Origin: Trichodesmium erythraeum IMS101
GTDB taxonomy: Bacteria; Cyanobacteriota; Cyanobacteriia; Cyanobacteriales; Microcoleaceae
Direction: 5' to 3'
Assembly: GCF_000014265.1 (NCBI RefSeq)
Contig: NC_008312.1
Span: forward strand, 3,330,001-3,362,000
Length of the DNA stretch: 32,000 nucleotides
Shown: in pieces, positions 3,209 to 31,132 of the stretch
How the letters are laid out: each line of letters starts with the position of its first letter
How positions within the stretch are numbered: position 1 is the stretch's first letter
Made by a program: the position numbers and the translations under genes
Notes under the pieces: generated by a model
Told to the model about the DNA's origin: nothing
Seen by the model: the letters and a program-made list of their open reading frames with translations, nothing else
Database searches by the model: none

Positions 3209-3715
3209 ATGGCTGTTAAAATAGTGAATAATATGGTTTGTTACGTTAAAATAGATATTATTGAATCAGCGGAAGAACTAAAAGAAATATTATCTCGACA
3301 GACAGATATAAAGCTCAAGCAAAAAGTACAAGCATTATATTGGCTTAAAATAGGAGCAGTAAATACTATTGAAAATATATCAATATTATTAGGATGTCAT
3401 CGAACAACTGTATCACGATGGTTTAGTACATATAGAAAGTTGGGTATAGAAGGTTTATTGAAGAAGAAAAAAATTTTGGGTAGACCTAGAAAAATATCAC
3501 CTATGTTAGAAAAAAAACTTAGAGATGAGCTAAAAGATATAGAGAGTTTTAAGAGTTATAATGAAGTGCAAACATGGTTAAAAGCAATGTGGGATATTAA
3601 TCTGCCATACTCAACAGTACATCGGTATGTTTATTATAATTTAAATACTAAATTAAAAGGGTCACCTCCAATAAGTAGTCAACAAAATTCAACAGCAGTT
3701 GAGGACTCAAAATAA
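3209..3715 (+). pseudogene. IS630-family-like transposase remnant. Only the N-terminal HTH / winged-helix part is present, and no DDE domain follows.
   Basis: The residues ...ISILLGCHRTTVSRWFSTYRKLGIEGLLKKKKILGRPRKISP...YSTVHRYVYYNLNTKLKG resemble the orfA/HTH region of cyanobacterial IS630-type transposases (from memory). The ORF stops at 168 aa, and downstream frames are broken. No catalytic domain and no clear terminal inverted repeats were found. Confidence 0.55.
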
Positions 3716-5014
3716 AATATTTTAACTACTATCGAAGGTAATTGAAAAATTGAAAATAACGGGTAAGTAAATTTTGGAACAGAGTTAAGTTTTACCTAAC
3801 TATTTAACTATCAGCTATCAGCTATTGAATGCTTACCTAATTATTTATCTCTACTTTATATACTTACTAAATACTTAATAGGCTAAGTTTCTACTACAAA
3901 AAAAATTATTACTTATTTACTGTCAGGTTAGTTTTTCCTTCTATTGCCTACTAAATTATGTTTGAAAAATTCATAGCTTTTATAAAGACAAAAGAATGGC
4001 AACTTGATTCGATGCAAATAGCAGAAGTTTTATGGTTTGTGCACCAAGTTAGTGAACAAAAACAGGAAGAAAATAATTCTCAAAATTTAGTTTCAAGTAA
4101 TACGGAGGAGCTAGCTGAAAACTTTGATCAATCTTATGACTTTCAACTTTCAAAAACAGCTAGTATTCAACAACCAAAAAAAACGCCTACTAGGTCTTCG
4201 TCTTCTCAATATCCTTTAACTACTTCATCATCAAATAAATCTCAAAATACAGAAATTCAACCAACATCTTTGACTACTGAAAAATTGCCTATCAAATTAC
4301 CAGACATAGCAATTTTGCGTAATACTCTAGAATTAAGTCGCCTAAGTAGTCAACAAAATTCAACAGCAGTTGAGGACTCAAAATAAAATATTTTAACTAC
4401 TATCGAAGGTAATTGAAAAATTGAAAATAACGGGTAAGTAAATTTTGGAACAGAGTTAAGTTTTACCTAACTATTTAACTATCAGCTATCAGCTATTGAA
4501 TGCTTACCTAATTATTTATCTCTACTTTATATACTTACTAAATACTTAATAGGCTAAGTTTCTACTACAAAAAAAATTATTACTTATTTACTGTCAGGTT
4601 AGTTTTTCCTTCTATTGCCTACTAAATTATGTTTGAAAAATTCATAGCTTTTATAAAGACAAAAGAATGGCAACTTGATTCGATGCAAATAGCAGAGGTT
4701 TTATGGTTTGTGCACCAAGTTAGTGAACAAAAACAGGAAGAAAATAATTCTCAAAATTTAGTTTCAAGTAATACGGAGGAGCTAGCTGAAAACTTTGATC
4801 AATCTTATGACTTTCAACTTTCAAAAACAGCTAGTATTCAACAACCAAAAAAAACGCCTACTAGGTCTTCGTCTTCTCAATATCCTTTAACTACTTCATC
4901 ATCAAATAAATCTCAAAATACAGAAATTCAACCAACATCTTTGACTACTGAAAAATTGCCTATCAAATTACCAGACATAGCAATTTTGCGTAATACTCTA
5001 GAATTAAGTCGCCT
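3673..5014 (+). repeat. Perfect-register tandem duplication, 2 x 671 bp (copy 1 is 3673-4343, copy 2 is 4344-5014)
   Basis: By eye the two copies are identical apart from one substitution that I found (A at 4026 versus G at 4697, synonymous Glu). Each copy holds ~285 bp of IS-remnant/leader sequence plus the first ~386 nt of the large vWA gene. Confidence 0.95.
3958..4386 (+). pseudogene. Truncated duplicate of the N-terminus (about aa 1-129) of the 1911-aa vWA protein, fused to a 13-aa out-of-context tail. It may be expressed as a stand-alone N-terminal domain.
   Basis: Same leader, ATG and first 129 codons as the CDS at 4629. The reading frame then crosses the duplication junction (4343/4344) into IS-remnant sequence and ends with SSQQNSTAVEDSK*, the same tail as the ORF at 3209. 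Confidence 0.8.
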
Positions 5015-8000
5015 TATTAAACCCTTCAAACAAAAGGTAAACTCTCGAGTTGCTCAGGAATTAGATGTTAATGAAACTGCCAAAATAAGTGCAGAACTTA
5101 GTACCCTGAATTTTCCCCGTTATTTTCCAGTTTTAACTCCTAAAAAAGAACGTTGGTTAGATGTTGTTTTGCTCATAGAAGATAGTGATTCAATGATTCT
5201 TTGGCAGTCTTTATTGCCAGAAGTTAGAGATTTTCTAGAACATTTAGGAGCATTTCGAGATATCAAACTTTATCGCATAAAATGGGATAATAATTCAGAA
5301 AATTTACAAATTTATCCTTTTCATTCTCCTTCTCTGACTCTATCTCCTCAAGAATTAAATTCATCCGATCATAGACGGTTAATTTTGATGCTTAGTGATT
5401 GTATTTCCCTAGCTTGGATTAATCAGAAATTTATTAATATTCTTCAAAAATGGGCAACAAAAGAAAAGTTGACTATCCTCAATCCTTTTCCTGAAAGAAT
5501 GTGGGAAAATACAAATCTTTGTTATGCAATTAGACTGCGATTAGGAAATAATAAAAAGCAAAATTCGACTCAAAAATGGGATGCAATTCCTATTGAGTAT
5601 TGGCAAGAAAAATACCTTAATCAACAAACAGTTAAATTACCAATTCTAAATTTAGAACCAAAGTCAATGGCTGCTTGGGTTAATGTTATGGTAGGAAAAG
5701 GAATCAGTTGGTGTGCTGGTGCTGGGTTAGGTTTAGAATTGATGGGTCCAGAGCCAGAAGAAGAGGAAGAACCTCTCACTCCTAGAGAACAAATTAATAA
5801 TTTTTATGCCACTTTTTCCAAGGAAGCTTGGCAATTAATTCAATGGTTATCTGCTATTCCAATTAATCTTTCTACTATTCGTTTAATACAACGAGCTTTA
5901 TTACCAAAGTCGACTCAAATTAATGTCGCAGAAGTATTAATGGGAGGATTATTAAGTCCGGTTAAACCTTTTAATTCTTATCGTTTTCCTCATCAAATTG
6001 AGTTTGAATTTCAACCGGGAATTAGGGAGATATTTTTAGACCGTTTAGGAGGAAAAGAATTTTGTATTGGGGTTATTGGTCGTTTAACTGAAAAAATTGC
6101 TAGTCATTTTGGATATGAAACTATTCGAGAATTTGAAGCAATTCTATTAAATGAACCTTGGAATTTTCGGGATGATCAAGATATTAGATTAATTCACACT
6201 TTTGCGACTATATCTATCTCAACTCTTAGGCAATATGGAGATAAATATACTGATTATATTCCCAAGTTAGATAGAAGTCGCGCTCAGTTATATTTGATGT
6301 CTGAAGTTCCAGGAGAATCTATAAATTGGAGAGATTTTCTGGAAAAAGTCGCTCAAAAATATCGTTTAAGTTCTATTCAAAAAGAAATTTTAATTAATCT
6401 ATTTCCAAGTTCCCAAGAATTTCTTTCTATTTCTGAACTAGCTCAAAAACTTCTCAGTTCGGCTTCAGTTATTAAAGGTCGCTTAAATCATATTTTTCCT
6501 AAATTTGAAAGTAAAAATCCAGATTTATTTGCATCTCAAAAATATTCTCGACTAGAAGCTCTGCATTTATTTTTATCTTCTGAATATAAAAATTCATATA
6601 TTCCTCAAATTCTTGAAAATGATCAAATTGAGGAAAATTTACAAGACTTGAATTCTGAAGTTCCAGGAGAGTCTGTAAAATGGAGAGATTTTCTGGAAAA
6701 AGTCGCTCAAGAGTATGATTTAACTTCTATTCAAAAAGAAATTTTAATTAATCTATTTCCAAGTTCCCAAGAATTTCTTTCTATTTCTGAACTAGCTCAA
6801 AAACTTCTCAGTTCGGCTTCAGTTATTAAAGGTCGCTTAAATCATATTTTTCCTAAATTTGAAAATAAAAATCCAGATTTATTTGCATCTCAAAAATATT
6901 CTCGACTAGAAGCTCTGCATTTATTTTTATCTTCTGAATATGTAAATTCATATATTCCTCAAACTCTTGAAAATGATCAAATTGAGGAAAATTTACAAGA
7001 CTTGAATTCTGAAGTTCCAGGAGAGTCTGTAAAATGGAGAGATTTTCTGGAAAAAGTCGCTCAAGAGTATGATTTAACTTCTATTCAAAAAGAAATTTTA
7101 ATTAATCTATTTCCAAGTTCCCAAGAATTTCTTTCTATTTCTGAACTAGCTCAAAAACTTCTCAGTTCGGCTTCAGTTATTAAAGGTCGCTTAAATCATA
7201 TTTTTCCTAAATTTGAAAGTAAAAATCCAGATTTATTTGCATCTCAAAAATATTCTCGACTAGAAGCTCTGCATTTATTTTTATCTTCTGAATATAAAAA
7301 TTCATATATTCCTCAAATTCTTGAAAATGATCAAATTGAGGAAAATTTACAAGACTTGAATTCTGAAGTTCCAGGAGAGTCTGTAAAATGGAGAGATTTT
7401 CTGGAAAAAGTCGCTCAAGAGTATGATTTAACTTCTATTCAAAAAGAAATTTTAATTAATCTATTTCCAAGTTCCCAAGAATTTCTTTCTATTTCTGAAC
7501 TAGCTCAAAAACTTCTCAGTTCGGCTTCAGTTATTAAAGGTCGCTTAAATCATATTTTTCCTAAATTTGAAAATAAAAATCCAGATTTATTTGCATCTCA
7601 AAAATATTCTCGACTAGAAGCTCTGCATTTATTTTTATCTTCTGAATATGTAAATTCATATATTCCTCAAACTCTTGAAAATGATCAAATTGAGGAAAAT
7701 TTACAAGACTTGAATTCTGAAGTTCCAGGAGAGTCTGTAAAATGGAGAGATTTTCTGGAAAAAGTCGCTCAAGAGTATGATTTAACTTCTATTCAAAAAG
7801 AAATTTTAATTAATCTATTTCCAAGTTCCCAAGAATTTCTTTCTATTTCTGAACTAGCTCAAAAACTTCTCAGTTCGGCTTCAGTTATTAAAGGTCGCTT
7901 AAATCATATTTTTCCTAAATTTGAAAGTAAAAATCCAGATTTATTTGCATCTCAAAAATATTCTCGACTAGAAGCTCTGCATTTATTTTTATCTTCTGAA

Positions 8001-10364
8001 TATAAAAATTCATATATTCCTCAAATTCTTGAAAATGATCAAATTGAGGAAAATTTACAAGACTTGAATTCTGAAGTTCCAGGAGAGTCTGTAAAATGGA
8101 GAGATTTTCTGGAAAAAGTCGCTCAAAAATATCGTTTAAGTTCTAGTCAAAAAGAAATTTTAATTAATCTATTTCCAAGTTCCCAAGAATTTCTTTCTAT
8201 TTCTGAACTAGCTCAAAAACTGTCTCTTTCAACTTCAGCCATTAGGGGTCGCTTAACTAATATCTTTCGTAAATTTGAAAGTAAAAATCCAGATTTATTT
8301 GCATCTCAAAAATATTCTCGACTAGAAGCTCTGCATTTATTTTTATCTTCTGAATATAAAAATTCATATATTCCTCAAATTCTTGAAAATGATCAAATTG
8401 AGGAAAATTTACAAGACTTGAATTCTGAGGTTCCAGGAGAGTCTGTAAAATGGAGAGATTTTCTGGAAAAAGTCGCTCAAGAGTATGATTTAACTTCTAT
8501 TCAAAAAGAAATTTTAATTAATCTATTTCCAAGTTCCCAAGAATTTCTTTCTATTTCTCAAGCTGCTCAAAAACTGTCTCTTTCAACTTCAGCCATTAGG
8601 GGTCGCTTAACTAATATCTTTCGTAAATTTGAAAGTAAAAATCCAGATTTATTTGCATCTCAAAAATATTCTCGACTAGAAGCTCTGCATTTATTTTTAT
8701 CTTCTGAATATAAAAATTCATATATTCCTCAAATTCTTGAAAATGATCAAATTGAGGAAAATTTACAAGACTTGAATTCTGAAGTTCCAGGAGAGTCTGT
8801 AAAATGGAGAGATTTTCTGGAAAAAGTCGCTCAAGAGTATGATTTAAATTCTATTCAAAAAGAAATTTTAATTAATCTATTTCCAAGTTCCCAAGAATTT
8901 CTTTCTATTTCTGAACTAGCTCAAAAACTTCTCAGTTCGGCTTCAGTTATTAAAGGTCGCTTAAATCATATTTTTCCTAAATTTGAAAGTAAAAATCCAG
9001 ATTTATTTGCATCTCAAAAATATTCTCGACTAGAAGCTCTGCATTTATTTTTATCTTCTGAATATGTAAATTCATATATTCCTCAAATTCTTGAAAATGA
9101 TCAAATTGAGGAAAATTTACAAGACTTGAATTCTGAGGTTCCAGGAGAGTCTGTAAAATGGAGAGATTTTCTGGAAAAAGTCGCTCAAGAGTATGATTTA
9201 ACTTCTATTCAAAAAGAAATTTTAATTAATCTATTTCCAAGTTCCCAAGAATTTCTTTCTATTTCTCAAGCTGCTCAAAAACTGTCTCTTTCAACTTCAG
9301 CCATTAGGGGTCGCTTAACTAATATCTTTCGTAAATTTGAGAATAAAAACCCAGGGTTATTTGAATCTAGAAAAGGCTCTAAATTAGAAGCTCTACAGTC
9401 ATTTTTATTTTCTCAATATGTAAATTTAGATATTCCTCAAACTATTAAAAATAATCAGTTTCAAATTGGGGAAAAATTACAACATTGGAGTTTTAAAACC
9501 CCTACTGTTAACCGACGTGGAAATATTATCAACACCAGAACTTATACTGCTTCTTATTTCATCGAAATTCTTGGGCCTGATATTAATTTAGAAATGGTAG
9601 CTATCCCTGGTGGTACTTTTACCATGGGTTCTCCTGAAAGTGAAAAGTATAGCGAAGATAATGAACGGCCCCAACATCAGGTAACTGTTCCTTCCTTTTT
9701 TATGGGCAAATATCCAGTAACTCAAGGACAGTGGAAAGCGATCGCCTCTCGAACAGACATAAAAGTAGAAGGAGACCTAGACCCAGAGCCATCATATTTT
9801 AAAGAACCATACGAAAATATAGATAGATGGCACAGACCAGTGGAGCGGGTTAGTTGGAACCAAGCAGTAGAATTTTGTCAAAGACTATCAAAACTAACAG
9901 GAAGAAAGTACAGGTTGCCGAGTGAAGCAGAATGGGAATATGCTTGTCGTGCAGGAACGAGTACACCATTCTACTTTGGAGAAACCATAACACCTGAGTT
10001 AGCTAACTATGATGGGAAGTATACTTACAGCGATGGGCCAAAAGGAGAATATAGAGGGCAAACAACTCCTGTAGGTAAATTTCCACCAAATGCTTTTGGT
10101 TTATATGATATGCATGGAAACGTTCATGAATGGTGTGCTGACGACAGGCATGATAACTATGTAGGAGCTCCTACAGATGGAAGTGCTTGGATTAATAGTA
10201 ATACACATAGTGATACTAAAAGTAGAAAAATCCTTCGTAGCGGCTCCTGGTACGGCTATCCTTGGTGGTGTCGCTCTGGGGACCGCAACAGCTATTTCTC
10301 CGTCGAGGCGAACAACATCATTTTTGGTTTTCGTCTTGTGAGTGTCCCCCCCCAGGACTTTTGA
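4629..10364 (+). CDS. Giant multidomain protein. Order of parts: N-terminal alpha-helical domain, S/T/Q-rich linker, vWA-like domain, helical middle region, 9 tandem HTH modules, C-terminal FGE-sulfatase (SUMF1/C-type-lectin fold) domain.
   Basis: 1911-aa uninterrupted ORF. The vWA evidence is a MIDAS-like VVLLIEDSDSM (DSDSM at 5181-5195), then LILMLSDC and LTILNPFPERMW strands. The FGE-sulfatase evidence from ~9589 is GGTFTMGS, RPVERVSWNQAVEFCQRL, YRLPSEAEWEYACRAG, FGLYDMHGNVHEWC and RSGSW. Each repeat module contains a sigma70-region-4/LuxR-like HTH (LTSIQKEILINLF...LSISELAQKL..S.SVIKGRLNHIFPKF). Confidence 0.9.
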   Translation: MFEKFIAFIKTKEWQLDSMQIAEVLWFVHQVSEQKQEENNSQNLVSSNTEELAENFDQSYDFQLSKTASIQQPKKTPTRSSSSQYPLTTSSSNKSQNTEIQPTSLTTEKLPIKLPDIAILRNTLELSRLIKPFKQKVNSRVAQELDVNETAKISAELSTLNFPRYFPVLTPKKERWLDVVLLIEDSDSMILWQSLLPEVRDFLEHLGAFRDIKLYRIKWDNNSENLQIYPFHSPSLTLSPQELNSSDHRRLILMLSDCISLAWINQKFINILQKWATKEKLTILNPFPERMWENTNLCYAIRLRLGNNKKQNSTQKWDAIPIEYWQEKYLNQQTVKLPILNLEPKSMAAWVNVMVGKGISWCAGAGLGLELMGPEPEEEEEPLTPREQINNFYATFSKEAWQLIQWLSAIPINLSTIRLIQRALLPKSTQINVAEVLMGGLLSPVKPFNSYRFPHQIEFEFQPGIREIFLDRLGGKEFCIGVIGRLTEKIASHFGYETIREFEAILLNEPWNFRDDQDIRLIHTFATISISTLRQYGDKYTDYIPKLDRSRAQLYLMSEVPGESINWRDFLEKVAQKYRLSSIQKEILINLFPSSQEFLSISELAQKLLSSASVIKGRLNHIFPKFESKNPDLFASQKYSRLEALHLFLSSEYKNSYIPQILENDQIEENLQDLNSEVPGESVKWRDFLEKVAQEYDLTSIQKEILINLFPSSQEFLSISELAQKLLSSASVIKGRLNHIFPKFENKNPDLFASQKYSRLEALHLFLSSEYVNSYIPQTLENDQIEENLQDLNSEVPGESVKWRDFLEKVAQEYDLTSIQKEILINLFPSSQEFLSISELAQKLLSSASVIKGRLNHIFPKFESKNPDLFASQKYSRLEALHLFLSSEYKNSYIPQILENDQIEENLQDLNSEVPGESVKWRDFLEKVAQEYDLTSIQKEILINLFPSSQEFLSISELAQKLLSSASVIKGRLNHIFPKFENKNPDLFASQKYSRLEALHLFLSSEYVNSYIPQTLENDQIEENLQDLNSEVPGESVKWRDFLEKVAQEYDLTSIQKEILINLFPSSQEFLSISELAQKLLSSASVIKGRLNHIFPKFESKNPDLFASQKYSRLEALHLFLSSEYKNSYIPQILENDQIEENLQDLNSEVPGESVKWRDFLEKVAQKYRLSSSQKEILINLFPSSQEFLSISELAQKLSLSTSAIRGRLTNIFRKFESKNPDLFASQKYSRLEALHLFLSSEYKNSYIPQILENDQIEENLQDLNSEVPGESVKWRDFLEKVAQEYDLTSIQKEILINLFPSSQEFLSISQAAQKLSLSTSAIRGRLTNIFRKFESKNPDLFASQKYSRLEALHLFLSSEYKNSYIPQILENDQIEENLQDLNSEVPGESVKWRDFLEKVAQEYDLNSIQKEILINLFPSSQEFLSISELAQKLLSSASVIKGRLNHIFPKFESKNPDLFASQKYSRLEALHLFLSSEYVNSYIPQILENDQIEENLQDLNSEVPGESVKWRDFLEKVAQEYDLTSIQKEILINLFPSSQEFLSISQAAQKLSLSTSAIRGRLTNIFRKFENKNPGLFESRKGSKLEALQSFLFSQYVNLDIPQTIKNNQFQIGEKLQHWSFKTPTVNRRGNIINTRTYTASYFIEILGPDINLEMVAIPGGTFTMGSPESEKYSEDNERPQHQVTVPSFFMGKYPVTQGQWKAIASRTDIKVEGDLDPEPSYFKEPYENIDRWHRPVERVSWNQAVEFCQRLSKLTGRKYRLPSEAEWEYACRAGTSTPFYFGETITPELANYDGKYTYSDGPKGEYRGQTTPVGKFPPNAFGLYDMHGNVHEWCADDRHDNYVGAPTDGSAWINSNTHSDTKSRKILRSGSWYGYPWWCRSGDRNSYFSVEANNIIFGFRLVSVPPQDF
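6300..9485 (+). repeat. Nine in-frame tandem copies of a 354-bp (118-aa) coding unit
   Basis: Unit starts (TCTGAAGTTCCAGGAGA) fall at 6300, 6654, 7008, 7362, 7716, 8070, 8424, 8778 and 9132. Copies 2+3 and 4+5 form an apparently identical 708-bp super-repeat. Copies 6, 7 and 9 carry an alternative recognition-helix cassette (KLSLSTSAIRGRLTNIFRKF instead of KLLSSASVIKGRLNHIFPKF). Copy 9 diverges in its second half. Confidence 0.95.
10236..10361 (+). other. Candidate DGR variable region (VR) at the extreme C-terminus of the FGE-sulfatase domain
   Basis: It encodes RSGSWYGYPWWCRSGDRNSYFSVEANNIIFGFRLVSVPPQDF. This aligns with the RGGSW-NNN..N-CRSANRN-NN...-NNN-GFR(V/L)V layout of C-type-lectin-fold DGR targets (from memory). 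The segment is conspicuously A-poor (about 18 A in ~125 nt by hand count) and GC-rich within an AT-rich gene. It ends with a C8 run (10346-10353) just before the stop. Confidence 0.5.
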
Positions 10365-10469
10365 ATAGCCCTTTGCCCTCTTGCCCTCTTGCCCTATTTA
10401 GTCTCGCCAAAGGCTAGTCGAAATTTTTGAGCTTATGTAGTATTGTTGTAATATGTTGCGTGCTATATT

Positions 10470-19204: not shown

Positions 19205-19564
19205 TTGAATAAGGAAAAACTAATTTGGATAATTTCCTAGATTCATTTTTTTGAAGAGCTTAATTTTTTATTTGGGCAAGTCAGCCAATAAATTTTTATT
19301 TAAAAAGATTTAACTTAAAAAAAAGCTGATAACTCAATACTAATTGATATAAATAATTTTGAAATCTTAACTTTTGAGTTTCAACTTAAAATTACCAAAG
19401 AAATAAAGTTAATCTTTTACTCTTTCAACAGAATAAAAAAAACGAAATTTGGGATTTTTAGGTCTCCCTATTACTGGAAGTACTGTTGCCCTACGCGATA
19501 TGAAAAGCCCAGTTCCTCCTCCAGGAAGCTAACCAATAAATGATAATTGATACTGATAACTGAA

Positions 19565-21013
19565 ATGACGGATCAGCCAAGCTCCCGCAAAGAACTATAT
19601 GCTCGTATTCGCGAAATAGGCCGGGAAGAATTTCTCCTCGAAGAAATGACTCGCTATGGCTTTTGGCCAGAAGGTGAAGAAATGCCTCTAGACCCTGTCG
19701 ATGAAATTCAGCGTCGTGGGGAACTAGAACAACAACTGAAAAAACTTCGCCAAGAAAATGCCCACCTTTTTAACTTAAAGAAACTGGGTCAAGAAGCTTA
19801 CAAACAAAGATTAGTTGAGTCACGTCGCAAACAACAAGAAACTAAAGAACTTCGGGAAAGAGAAAGACAAGAACGCGCTAAAGCATGGCAAGAAAAAAAA
19901 GAAAATGACATTATTTATCTAGGGGAAGAGATATCTGGAGGACTGAATAATGTTGAAGGGAATATCTTTCGTCTCGAAATTTACAACCTCCCTATCCTTA
20001 ATACTGCCCAAGATATAGCTAATGCTATGGATATTACTGTGGGAGAACTTAGGTTTCTGGCATTTTCCCGCCCTACTTCTACAGTTTCCCACTACATCCG
20101 TTTCAAAATTCCTAAGAAAACAGGGGGAGAAAGGCAAATATCTGCTCCGATGCCACGTTTGAAAAATGTTCAAACTTGGATACTTGATAATATTCTCTGT
20201 AATGTTCCCCTCCATGAAGCAGTTCATGGTTTCCGTGCCGGACATTCTATTCTTACTAATGCTGAACCTCATGTGGCTAAAGATGTAATTATTAATTTTG
20301 ACCTAAAAAATTTTTTTCCCTCTATTTGTTACAAGCGTGTCAAAGGATTATTTTTTTCATTGGGTTACTCTGAAGCTGCTGCTACTATTTTTGCTCTTCT
20401 TTGTACTGAACCTAATGTCGTAGTAGTAGAGTTAGACGGACAGGTTTATTATGTAGCTCAGAGCGATCGCCACTTACCTCAAGGTTCTCCTGCTAGTCCA
20501 GCAATTACTAATATTATGTGTCGTCGCTTGGATAAACGTCTAAGTGAAATGGCAGCCAAACTTGATTTTGTTTATACTCGTTATGCTGATGACTTGACTT
20601 TTTCTAGTTCTGGAGATAGTCTCCGACACATTTGCAATGTTTTCCGACGTACTGAGTCTATTGTTAGTCATGAAGGGTTTACTGTAAATAGAGAAAAGAC
20701 CAGACTTCTTCGGGGCAAGTCTAGTCAACTTGAAGTTACTGGTGTTGTGGTGAATGAATTTCCGAATATTTCTCGCAAAGAGTTGAAGAGGTTTCGGGCA
20801 ACTTTATATCAGATAGAAAAGGACGGACCTCAAGGGAAAAGGTGGGGTCATAGTGATAATGTGATAGCTGCAATAGAAGGTTTTGCTAATTTTGTGGCGA
20901 TGGTCAACCCGGAAAAAGGTAGGGAGTTAGTGAGGCGGGTGAAACAAATTAAGGAAAAATATACTGGGAGAAGGAGGCGATCGACGAAAATTTTGGAGCA
21001 CGATGGTACTTAG
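19565..21013 (+). CDS. Retron-clade reverse transcriptase with a ~165-aa N-terminal coiled-coil extension
   Basis: RT motifs are IPKKTGGERQISAP, NFDLKNFFPSI, LPQGSPASPAITN and YTRYADDLTFS. Retron-type hallmarks are NAxxH (TNAEPH) and VTG (LEVTGVVVN). The N-terminus is rich in charged heptads (RRGELEQQLKKLRQEN...RKQQETKELRERERQERAKAW). The track start at 19547 is TTG, so I prefer the ATG at 19565. Confidence 0.88.
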   Translation: MTDQPSSRKELYARIREIGREEFLLEEMTRYGFWPEGEEMPLDPVDEIQRRGELEQQLKKLRQENAHLFNLKKLGQEAYKQRLVESRRKQQETKELRERERQERAKAWQEKKENDIIYLGEEISGGLNNVEGNIFRLEIYNLPILNTAQDIANAMDITVGELRFLAFSRPTSTVSHYIRFKIPKKTGGERQISAPMPRLKNVQTWILDNILCNVPLHEAVHGFRAGHSILTNAEPHVAKDVIINFDLKNFFPSICYKRVKGLFFSLGYSEAAATIFALLCTEPNVVVVELDGQVYYVAQSDRHLPQGSPASPAITNIMCRRLDKRLSEMAAKLDFVYTRYADDLTFSSSGDSLRHICNVFRRTESIVSHEGFTVNREKTRLLRGKSSQLEVTGVVVNEFPNISRKELKRFRATLYQIEKDGPQGKRWGHSDNVIAAIEGFANFVAMVNPEKGRELVRRVKQIKEKYTGRRRRSTKILEHDGT

Positions 21014-25871: not shown

Positions 25872-26336
25872 TTATCCCAAAAATTTAGTTAAATCAAATT
25901 CGGCTTCTGCCTGAGGTTTCTGATATCTTTCAGAAATTAAAACTAATAAAAGACGCTCTGAATAATTTACTGCACCTCGCAGTTCATCTTGTAATATTTC
26001 CAATCCCCCATTAGCATACTCTTCAAATATTTTAATCCGATTTTCCTCTATTTCTTCATTAGTTTGGGAGAGAATTTTTGTATCTCTTGTGTCGGCGATC
26101 GCAATTAATTTAATAATATTTTCATATCCCCTAGACCAAAACACCTCAATATTAATTGGCCCTGGTTCTCTTATAGAAATTTCTGTCACTGGAATTCGCT
26201 TTTTTTTCTTAATAGCTAAAGATGCAGCAAATACTATTACATCTGCATAGGTTTTAAATGGGCCTGTTTTTCCTTCTGATTCAGTTAAAGCTTTAACTAA
26301 ATCTGCTTTATCTTTAGCAATTCTAATTCTGTTCAT
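25872..26336 (-). CDS. Small protein, possibly related to the 'DNA phosphorothioation (Dnd) system-associated protein 4' family
   Basis: 154-aa ORF. The N-terminal R...KD....L....E...GPF.TYADVIVFAASL and the IFEEYANGGLEIL block resemble what I remember of that family. Memory-based only and needs an HMM search. Confidence 0.4.
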   Translation of the reverse strand: MNRIRIAKDKADLVKALTESEGKTGPFKTYADVIVFAASLAIKKKKRIPVTEISIREPGPINIEVFWSRGYENIIKLIAIADTRDTKILSQTNEEIEENRIKIFEEYANGGLEILQDELRGAVNYSERLLLVLISERYQKPQAEAEFDLTKFLG

Positions 26337-29059: not shown

Positions 29060-31132
29060 TTAAAAATCATTATTATCTACCTCAAGTAATTCTGTATATT
29101 CAAACTCATTTGGACTACGTTTTACCAAAGGATAAGATTTACCACCTAACTCAATAGCATCTTCCTCACAATCTGATTTTGGAGAATTATAAGAAAGCAC
29201 ATATTCCCTGCCAATATAATCAGCCATTTCCTCAGCAACTTCACCTCGCCATTGAGTCTTAGTTACTAATACAACTAATTGATTTGCTAATTGAGGAATT
29301 ATTTTAGCAATTTTTCGCCGATAAATCTCATCTAAACTCCCAAAAGGAGAATCCATTACAATAGGAAAAGTACTACTGTCAGGACCCATTAAAGTATTTT
29401 TTTTACTCCACTCTCTTACCTGATCAATAATGCTACCAATAAATGCCAAACTGAGGATTTGATTCTCTCCTGTAGAAGCAGCAACTAAGTCATTTTTACT
29501 ACTAGTATTTTCTACTAAAGTTAACTCATAGTTTTTATTTAGCTGAGGAATATAAGGAGTAAAAGAAATTTCAGAAAATAACTCTTGTACCCGTTTTTCT
29601 AAAGAAATTCTAAATTGTTTTTCTAAACGTAAACGTACTTCGTTTAGCCTCTCAATAGCATCCTGAGTAGCAGCAATTCGTCTTTGAGATAAAACTTGCC
29701 TTAACTCATTCATAGTTTGGCGATCGACTTGTTTATCTAAAACCTTAATTTCTTTATGTAAAGTTTCTAACTGTAGACTATTTGAACCAGTTTCTCTATT
29801 TAAATTTCCCACCTTAATTTCAATTTCATCTAACCTTTTTTGTAACTCCTGAATATCCTCATCTGGATAAGAGCGTAATTTTTTTTGAACTATTTCCAAT
29901 TCATTTTCCACCCCTGAAAGCTGATAACGTAATTGTTCTATATTTCCTTGTTGTCTATCAACTTCATCCCAAAAATCTACAATTTGCTTATCAACTTCAT
30001 CCATTTGTACAGTCATTCTAATTGCAGTTTCTTCAACATCAGCAACCTCTACTTTTTGCATCCATTTTTCTACTAATTTTCTCCCATTAGAATCTATAGT
30101 TAATTCAGTGCCACAAATACAACGTTGTTTTTCTAATAACTGTTGAACAAACTGCCGATTAATTCCTGTAAGTAACTCACCTTTTTCCTTTAAATGACTA
30201 AATAATTCTCGAAATTCTACTATTGCTTCTGATAAAAAAACCATATAACCACGAGTTGATATAGCTCTTTTTAAACTCTGATTTGCTTGTACTATTTGTT
30301 CTTTTATTTCCCCAATACGAACCTTTAATTTGTCTCTTTGTTGAGGCAATCCTTCTGCACCTTTAAAATCTAACAAACGACTATTAATTTCTTTTTTAAA
30401 TTTTCCATGATGTTGTAATTCTTGATCTATTTCTTGTTGGCGTTTTGATAATTTATAAATTTCCTGTTCAATTTTACTTTTTTCTTTCAAGAACTTTTTA
30501 GTCTCTGGATTCCCAATCAATCTTAAATCAGTTTCTAGGGATTTTTTAGCTTCCCCTAAATGTCTAACAGAACGATTTAATACTTCAATTCCTAATAATT
30601 CCTTAGTAGCTTCTGCAATTTCACTTTTTTGGTTATCCCTAACAATATATTCAATTCTTTCACCGTCAAAAAAGAAATATCGATGTAAACTTTCTGGCAG
30701 AATTCTACCAATAATATCATCAGGATGTTCTGGTGGTGGAGACCAACGTCCATCATCTCCAGCTATCTGCATATATAGCTCACTTTTGCCATGTTCAATT
30801 TTATTTTCTTCGTTTCTATAAGCTCGACATAAACGCTTTGCTTGATAACGTTTATGATTATGTTCAAATATAATTTCTACCCAACAAGCAATAGCTTTAC
30901 CCGCTTTTGCTTCTGTAATTGCTCGTTTATTTACCAATTGAGTTTCTGCAGCAAAAGCTGCACTAAATTTCTCATAAAGTACCCAGGTAAAAGCATTCAT
31001 GATAGTAGTTTTACCGGCACCATTGTTGCCATGAATAATTGTCGTATTTTGTTTCCCTGAAGCACAAATTATTTCTGGAGTTTTGCCATAAAACTGGCGA
31101 AAGTTACACAATATAATTGACACTAATTTCAT
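29060..31132 (-). CDS. DndD-like SMC/ABC-type ATPase with a long coiled-coil insert
   Basis: 690 aa. Contains N-terminal LCNFRQFYG...IHGNNGAGKTT (Walker A), FFFDGERIE (DndD-like), ~330 aa of heptad-rich E/K/Q/L sequence with a central CICGTEL, a signature-like STGENQILSLAFIGSII, Walker B/D-loop FPIVMDSPFGSLD, and QLVVLVTKTQW. Confidence 0.8.
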   Translation of the reverse strand: MKLVSIILCNFRQFYGKTPEIICASGKQNTTIIHGNNGAGKTTIMNAFTWVLYEKFSAAFAAETQLVNKRAITEAKAGKAIACWVEIIFEHNHKRYQAKRLCRAYRNEENKIEHGKSELYMQIAGDDGRWSPPPEHPDDIIGRILPESLHRYFFFDGERIEYIVRDNQKSEIAEATKELLGIEVLNRSVRHLGEAKKSLETDLRLIGNPETKKFLKEKSKIEQEIYKLSKRQQEIDQELQHHGKFKKEINSRLLDFKGAEGLPQQRDKLKVRIGEIKEQIVQANQSLKRAISTRGYMVFLSEAIVEFRELFSHLKEKGELLTGINRQFVQQLLEKQRCICGTELTIDSNGRKLVEKWMQKVEVADVEETAIRMTVQMDEVDKQIVDFWDEVDRQQGNIEQLRYQLSGVENELEIVQKKLRSYPDEDIQELQKRLDEIEIKVGNLNRETGSNSLQLETLHKEIKVLDKQVDRQTMNELRQVLSQRRIAATQDAIERLNEVRLRLEKQFRISLEKRVQELFSEISFTPYIPQLNKNYELTLVENTSSKNDLVAASTGENQILSLAFIGSIIDQVREWSKKNTLMGPDSSTFPIVMDSPFGSLDEIYRRKIAKIIPQLANQLVVLVTKTQWRGEVAEEMADYIGREYVLSYNSPKSDCEEDAIELGGKSYPLVKRSPNEFEYTELLEVDNNDF

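Follow-up and report, generated by a model that had tools for sequence, protein, structure and literature searches.

The 3' end of a repeat-rich FGE-domain gene as a probable remote variable region of the Trichodesmium diversity-generating retroelement

Results

In a window of 32,000 nucleotides (nt) from Trichodesmium erythraeum IMS101 (contig NC_008312.1, positions 3,330,001 to 3,362,000, to whose forward strand all window coordinates below refer), we examined the gene at 4629-10364 (+) as a presumed target of a diversity-generating retroelement (DGR), in which a variable region (VR) would be rewritten from a template repeat (TR) lying elsewhere. Its 1911-aa product combines a SAV_2336-N domain, tandem repeats and a C-terminal FGE-sulfatase domain of the C-type lectin fold. 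The ATG start is the same in an orthologue from an ENA assembly (P0122), and the NCBIfam family SAV_2336_NTERM matches residues 18-495 with an E value of 6e-99 (332 bits against a cutoff of 200). No Pfam vWA domain is matched at E<=0.1 in residues 1-557. An EDSDS motif in this N-terminal part resembles a metal ion-dependent adhesion (MIDAS) site by eye only, and a single-sequence AlphaFold model of the same 557 residues has a pLDDT of 34, too low to be used for recognising a vWA fold.

The central part of the gene is a tandem array (6300-9457, +) of 8.9 copies of a 354-nt (118-aa) unit, about 95% alike as defined by Tandem Repeats Finder, with weak Pfam matches to helix-turn-helix (HTH) and sigma-70 region 4-like domains. 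Short-read assemblies collapse this array to one or few copies (P0122 is 967 aa long), so the copy number cannot be read in other strains; by exact look-up, the 1911-aa product is not on record in the protein collection searched. The FGE-sulfatase domain follows at 9591-10340 (+; Pfam, aa 1655-1904, E 9e-55), with the presumed VR at its C-terminal end. Among sequences of known structure, the domain matches PvdO (2e-45), FGE (8e-23, with human and bacterial enzymes among the matches) and Treponema denticola TvpA (2Y3C, 1e-20); the TvpA alignment passes through the tail of our protein and reaches the C-terminal end of TvpA. At its 5' end the gene is preceded by a tandem duplication of 671 nt (3672-4342 and 4343-5013, with a single mismatch, A at 4026 and G at 4697) that spans the upstream region and the first 129 codons, and that created a truncated ORF (open reading frame) of 142 aa (3958-4386) ahead of the gene.

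The 3' end of the gene stands apart from the rest in composition. The segment 10236-10361 contains 14.3% A, 28.6% C, 27.0% G and 30.2% T (55.6% GC), as compared with 34.9% A and about 31.5% GC in the remainder of the gene (4629-10235), in good agreement with the roughly 15% A that an earlier note on this DNA had counted by hand. When all 126-nt stretches of the 32 kb are ranked, this tail belongs to the bottom 0.07% by A content and to the top 0.02% by GC; the stretch of maximum GC starts at 10233, where the composition changes sharply. The composition outlier is real and far from chance. The tail is in frame and supplies the conserved GSW...CRS...GFRLV end of the FGE fold, and the protein terminates in ...RSGSWYGYPWWCRSGDRNSYFSVEANNIIFGFRLVSVPPQDF followed by the stop codon, the last 42 or so codons reading as the earlier note had quoted them. 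The run of eight C (10346-10353) and the octamer repeats beyond it (10369-10395, CCCTTTG CCCTCTTG CCCTCTTG CCCT) that it described are likewise present.

The earlier note had proposed that this tail is a VR served by a DGR elsewhere in the genome. The window contains no second TR-like copy of the tail, no bAvd/Avd-like ORF and no DGR-type reverse transcriptase (RT). A scan of species-representative genomes with a pattern constrained at the conserved tail codons alone returned six matches, all of them in Trichodesmium metagenome-assembled genomes (MAGs). When these six VRs are set beside the window tail, an invariant scaffold is interrupted by nnC-type variation at codon positions 1 and 2. A template was predicted from the seven sequences by placing an A at each variable column, before any TR had been found; it proved to be exactly the TR of one of the loci described next (L017). 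A scan of the JGI metagenomes with the predicted TR gave no match, and, because the prediction is identical to a real template, this means that the JGI collection lacks the TR. A scan of viral contigs for the 3' homology also gave no match.

The template itself was recovered from congeneric assemblies. A homologue search with the FGE domain led to a protein (P0118) of Trichodesmium sp. ALOHA_ZT_67, whose contig (L013) begins inside an RT gene and continues with an intergenic TR and a 292-aa FGE gene. Two ENA metagenome contigs (L016 and L017) carry the complete order bAvd, RT (354 aa), TR and FGE gene. All three RTs contain LPIGNLTSQFLANFFL with its LPIGNLTSQ motif, of the IGxxxSQ type, together with YVDDF, and all three TRs start about 115 nt past the RT stop codon. 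In the ORF upstream of the RT of a further locus (L014), Pfam PF22296 (bAvd) is matched with E 1.7e-11 (45 bits against a cutoff of 40), and the corresponding ORFs of L016 and L017 are annotated likewise. The RT of L013 is 95% identical to an RT fragment of T. erythraeum (P0124). A look-up of this fragment for a TR of the same species found no record of it, and the P0125 contigs are too short to contain the TR. Thus a template matching the tail lies beside a DGR-type RT and a bAvd gene, as the earlier note had anticipated. The RT of another candidate locus (P0009) was rejected as a DGR enzyme, being a group II intron enzyme.

The TR matches the tail over 105 nt. In L013 it reads AGC GGC TCC TGG AAC AAC TAT CCT AGG AGG TGT CGC TCT GCG AAC CGC AAC AAC TAT AAC TCG GAC GAG ACG GAC AAC AAC AAT ATT GGT TTT CGT CTT GTG AGT TTC CCC CCC AGC ACT, into the 3' homology. 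Over the VR-homologous core, the three TRs are the same save for codons 5-7 (L013 955-963), which read AAC AAC TAT, TAC TTC AAT and TAC AAC AAT; the template itself therefore varies between lineages at positions that are adenine in others. By codon position the TR has 14, 14 and 0 adenines, plus that of AGC, with none at position 3. Homology to the TR in the window runs from 10239 (AGC) to about 10361, so that the VR proposed by the earlier note at 10236-10361 stands with its start moved by three nucleotides. It ends 1-3 nt ahead of the stop codon, at the 3' end of an ORF with an FGE/C-type lectin fold. The peculiar composition of the tail within a 33% GC genome follows from the template, since all 29 adenines of the TR fall on the first two codon positions and G+C makes up 69% of its remaining bases.

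The differences between VR and TR are concentrated on template adenines. In the window VR (10239-10343), 14 of the 29 adenine sites and three of the 76 other sites differ from the TR (Fisher 3.5e-7, with the TRs of L013 and L017), nine of the 14 changes being A to T and five A to G. All 29 template-adenine positions lie in the diversified part of the VR (10239-10323, +). Eleven other VR rows, which represent ten distinct loci plus a duplicate of the window (L010), show 12-16 mismatches at adenine sites and 0-4 elsewhere. Among the 12 VRs, paralogues and orthologues together, every scored adenine column varies (28/28), as against 10 of 76 others, mostly through singletons. Among the residues that the earlier note had assigned to template adenines (Y-G-Y, W-W, G-D and S-Y-F-S), two need correction: the G of G-D (GGG at 10278-10280; GCG in the TR) arose by a non-adenine change, and the last S of S-Y-F-S (TCC; TCG in the TR) differs by a synonymous non-adenine change.

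Comparison of orthologues shows the same restriction. The locus of T. erythraeum GBRTRLIN201 (L010) is identical to the window from 9930 on (100% over the last 10.4 kb of overlap), and so is effectively the same strain. The syntenic orthologue of ALOHA_ZT_67 (L011) is 99.1% identical over 10.7 kb, and 20 of its 93 differences from the window lie inside the 107-nt VR, at 17 of the 29 adenine sites and three of the 76 others (p 2.4e-9). Strain variants and paralogues thus differ at template adenines rather than at random. Judging from cluster members, the window allele of the VR is unchanged in four assemblies, which differ at a few residues of the flanking protein sequence, and the L011 allele is found in two. 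Divergence between the two alleles extends beyond the templated segment: it reaches 4-6% over the FGE domain as compared with 0.1-0.7% in the flanks, which suggests, together with the untemplated stretch described next, that the alleles may predate the genomes that carry them. The 45 nt upstream of the VR (10194-10238), which are not templated by the TR, are 22% divergent between the window and L011; selection on a neighbouring surface loop, balanced alleles of long standing and conversion between paralogues are all possibilities. A metagenome scan with the locus-specific 3' flank for population alleles returned no match.

Downstream of the diversified codons lies an invariant stretch of TR/VR homology (10324-10361, +; TTGGTTTTCGTCTTGTGAGT-GT-C8-AGGACTTTT) that resembles an initiation of mutagenic homing (IMH) element and matches the 35-bp 3' homology region described for the T. 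erythraeum DGR (PMC4143802). After its poly-C run (window 10356; L013 ~1082), all VRs read CAG-G-ACT and all three TRs CAG-C-ACT. This single fixed G/C difference might correspond to the IMH/IMH* pair and so set the direction of transfer. Beyond the homology, a block of 3' UTR (untranslated region) is common to all VR loci and absent from the TR (10365-10421, +). It contains CCCTYTTG-type repeats (10369-10395) and a hairpin position (10403-10417, +; CTCGCC-AAA-GGCTAG), which has one C/T mismatch in the lineage of the window. Because the hairpin lies within the shared 3' UTR and beside a T-run, it may equally be a terminator.

Mean pairwise identity among the 12 VR loci is 0.52 in the 45 nt before the VR, 0.81 in the VR, 0.91 in the IMH-like stretch (10336-10361) and 0.83 in the 3' UTR block up to the hairpin, and falls to 0.42 just past the hairpin and to 0.29 further downstream. 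Since homology to the TR ends at about 10361, conservation of the 3' UTR block does not depend on the template, and since the conserved block reaches about 10421, the octamer repeats belong to a shared 3' UTR module. Two adjacent VR-bearing paralogues occur in MAG_R03 (L007 2597-2774 and 5809-5993). The first of them has four non-adenine changes, lacks one octamer repeat and shares the GT and hairpin-AAA-GGCTAG variants of the window; by its sequence it looks like a decayed VR of the window subtype.

Discussion

We conclude with high confidence that 10239-10361 is the VR of a remote, trans target of the Trichodesmium DGR. The TR/VR relationship, the restriction of differences to adenine sites, the composition of the cassette in sister genomes and the domain content of the target are direct observations. 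The gene is classed as a remote target because the window lacks the cassette, and because the orthologue and the cassette of the ALOHA_ZT_67 MAG are on different contigs, which agrees with the earlier note's placement of the DGR elsewhere in the genome. A cassette of bAvd, RT and TR at another site would transcribe the TR; the RT would copy the TR RNA into cDNA, misincorporating opposite template adenines; and the cDNA would then take the place of the VR in each gene that bears this 3' homology (GGTTTTCGTCTTGTGAGT-poly-C-AGGACT). An FGE-type C-type lectin domain related to TvpA, the fold that the earlier note had named, carries the rewritten residues at its C-terminal end, and by homology to TvpA they probably form the ligand-binding face; the target protein may sense a ligand.

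The features of the window agree closely with the DGR described in this species, which comprises the RT Tery_1728/1729, a 265-nt TR RNA and 12 FGE-domain genes bearing VRs (Pfreundt et al. 2014, PMC4143802). In that system the hypermutation sites lie at codon positions 1 and 2 only, the 3' homology is 35 bp long and some VRs are degenerate (PMC4143802). The window gene shares with it the genus, a DUF323/FGE target domain and a VR placed at the extreme 3' end. In both, the A sites are confined to codon positions 1 and 2, some 17 codons are rewritten, and the conserved 3' homology passes into a shared 3' UTR. Of the published genes, two (Tery_0247 and Tery_2136) have the same one-base insertion and an early stop (PMC4143802), and so does the window gene, where the protein ends earlier, in VSVPPQDF. 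Our guess is that the window gene is Tery_2136 rather than Tery_0247, since the latter is listed as a Ser/Thr kinase (PMC2176072) and the window protein contains no kinase domain. Remote variable proteins of cyanobacteria have been catalogued (Vallota-Eastman et al. 2020, PMC7517822); the supplements of that study contain neither TR sequences nor locus tags for the target gene.

The likeness extends to the Bordetella phage BPP-1 DGR (Mtd, Brt, Avd, TR, IMH and a 3' hairpin), with which the Trichodesmium system shares adenine-specific transfer from TR to VR, an Avd-family gene, an IGxxxSQ RT, and a VR placed 3'-terminally in the gene for a C-type-lectin-fold protein, with GC-rich homology after it; the FGE subtype of the domain is that of T. 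denticola TvpA (2Y3C). Unlike the BPP-1 element, which serves one adjacent phage gene, the Trichodesmium DGR serves a dozen dispersed cellular genes in trans. Its IMH and IMH* differ by one base (G versus C after the poly-C run), and its hairpin lies about 50 nt downstream, in the shared 3' UTR beside a T-run.

Several observations weigh against our main reading, that the tail is the VR of a remote DGR target. The TR and RT described here come from sister assemblies and not from the genome of the window itself, and the RT of the culture strain IMS101 is a pseudogene, broken by a stop codon (PMC4143802). At three non-adenine sites (10279 C>G, 10301 G>C and 10311 G>A) the window VR departs from every one of the three TR variants. 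Its IMH-like stretch is altered (T>G at 10344, and C8 instead of C7), with the consequence that the final residues shift from VSFPPRT.. to VSVPPQDF, and the hairpin predicted in paralogues is not found in the window's own minimum-free-energy fold. Each allele, moreover, is invariant across the assemblies that carry it (four and two), so there is no sign of hypervariability in populations at this locus.

It is possible, if somewhat short of an even chance, that the VR of the window is a relic: the DGR would have written it at an earlier time but would have ceased to target it for homing in this lineage, and it would now evolve as ordinary coding DNA. This would refine our explanation rather than replace it. 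The non-adenine mismatches, the T>G and extra C in the IMH-like run, the C/T-mismatched hairpin and the identity of the VR in four independent assemblies despite a few flanking-residue differences would all fit, and VRs with non-adenine changes and changes in the 3' homology were classed as degenerate in the study that reported the interrupted RT (PMC4143802). However, L011 shares the C8, T>G and hairpin variants of the window, yet differs from it at 17 A sites, as if rewriting had continued after these variants arose; the 3' variants alone are therefore no proof of lost targeting. The VR adjacent to the cassette in L013 carries the T>G change too, and two of the three non-adenine sites (10301 and 10311) vary in other VRs and may be tolerated or recurrent. 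On balance we lean towards rewriting of the window copy being slow or stopped in this lineage. A further idea, which we consider rather doubtful, is that the 3' UTR block is a cis signal by which one TR reaches a dozen trans loci, and that the window copy is a natural hypomorph leaving the target set. If so, the gene would present a two-allele immune-sensor polymorphism rather than a hypervariable one.

Explanations that dispense with the DGR fare worse. The tail might be a C-terminal module common to a paralogous FGE family and kept alike by gene conversion, with ordinary diversifying selection on a few surface codons, without any retroelement. Such a process would accommodate the divergence hot spot that covers the whole FGE domain, including the untemplated 45 nt. 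It is nevertheless very unlikely, as a non-coding copy of the segment adjoins bAvd and a DGR RT, this copy has adenine exactly at the columns that vary in the VRs, no A site falls at a third codon position, and the TR was predicted from the VRs ahead of its discovery. Alternatively, the GC-rich tail and 3' repeats could be the terminal part of an inserted mobile element or of horizontally acquired DNA with no link to diversification, as the sharp change in composition at ~10233 might suggest, along with the duplication and an insertion sequence (IS)-like HTH gene upstream. We regard this as extremely improbable: the tail is in frame, completes the conserved end of the FGE fold and is syntenic in orthologues, its composition follows directly from the TR, and no terminal repeats or target-site duplications are seen around 10233-10421.

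That one TR serves many targets in Trichodesmium, and that such targets are linked to MoxR and VMAP genes, is already known, and our analysis adds little to the biology of the system. The modest new points are the lineage variation of the TR, which is confined to codons 5-7, the single G/C difference between VRs and TRs, and the two fixed alleles with signs of decay. Of more practical value, a trans-acting DGR target could be recognised from raw sequence alone, by an FGE domain whose tail is A-poor and GC-rich and leads into a poly-C run. These signs may help to annotate DGR targets whose cassette sits on another contig.

Genomic neighbourhood

FGE targets of DGRs have been placed in ternary conflict systems composed of MoxR, vWA and VMAP (vWA-MoxR associated protein) components (Kaur et al. 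2020, PMC7159879; Doré et al. 2024, PMC10907252, clade 5E). In cyanobacterial systems of this type, the vWA component is fused to an FGS domain, the target of diversification by a cis- or trans-acting DGR (PMC7159879, PMC10907252). Binding of invader molecules is the role presumed for the hypervariable lectin domain. The window contains a comparable set of genes. A VMAP-C gene encoding 297 aa (98-991, +; Pfam PF20028, E 1.5e-20, 74.5 bits against a cutoff of 27) and a MoxR-like AAA+ ATPase gene (1996-2943, +; Pfam AAA_5 4e-9, with a weak bpMoxR match of 2e-5 that is below cutoff) both lie upstream of the target. As in those systems, the large downstream protein ends in the FGE/FGS domain with all its other domains N-terminal to it, and the TR, in the words of the eLife paper, may be 'elsewhere in the genome'.

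There are also differences from the ternary systems. Pfam detects no vWA domain in the N-terminal 557 residues, where only NCBIfam SAV_2336_NTERM is matched; the VMAP-C protein is short and has no recognisable N-terminal effector; and we did not find a description there of tandem repeats such as the nine HTH-like copies of the window protein. The genes of the window are furthermore separated by the IS-like HTH gene, the 671-nt duplication and a heptamer array of ~800 nt. This array fills the gap between the VMAP-C and MoxR genes (1187-1993) with about 115 copies of AAACCTA and has a higher-order periodicity of 113-176 nt. The HTH gene, between the MoxR and target genes (3209-3715, +), has a homeodomain-like HTH_32/HTH_23 match typical of the N-terminus of IS630-type transposases.

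The earlier note was correct that the window holds neither a TR nor a DGR RT, though an RT of another kind is present. The sole RT gene of the window (19547-21013, +) encodes a retron enzyme (PADLOC RT_XIII, E 4e-190; NCBIfam retron St85/Ec67-like) and was rejected as a DGR RT, being of retron type XIII, lacking the IGxxxSQ context and showing only 24% identity to the DGR RT. It has an N-terminal extension of ~150 aa and keeps the same place in the orthologous loci L010 and L011. An Rfam scan of the window returned tRNA only. On the reverse strand, a PbeC/DndD-like SMC-type ATPase gene (29060-31132, -; PADLOC PbeC, E = 0) lies near a small ORF (25872-26336, -) that is annotated as DNA_S_mod_dnd_assoc_4 in the collection. 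Together with the retron and the DGR target, these two genes suggest a defence-rich neighbourhood.

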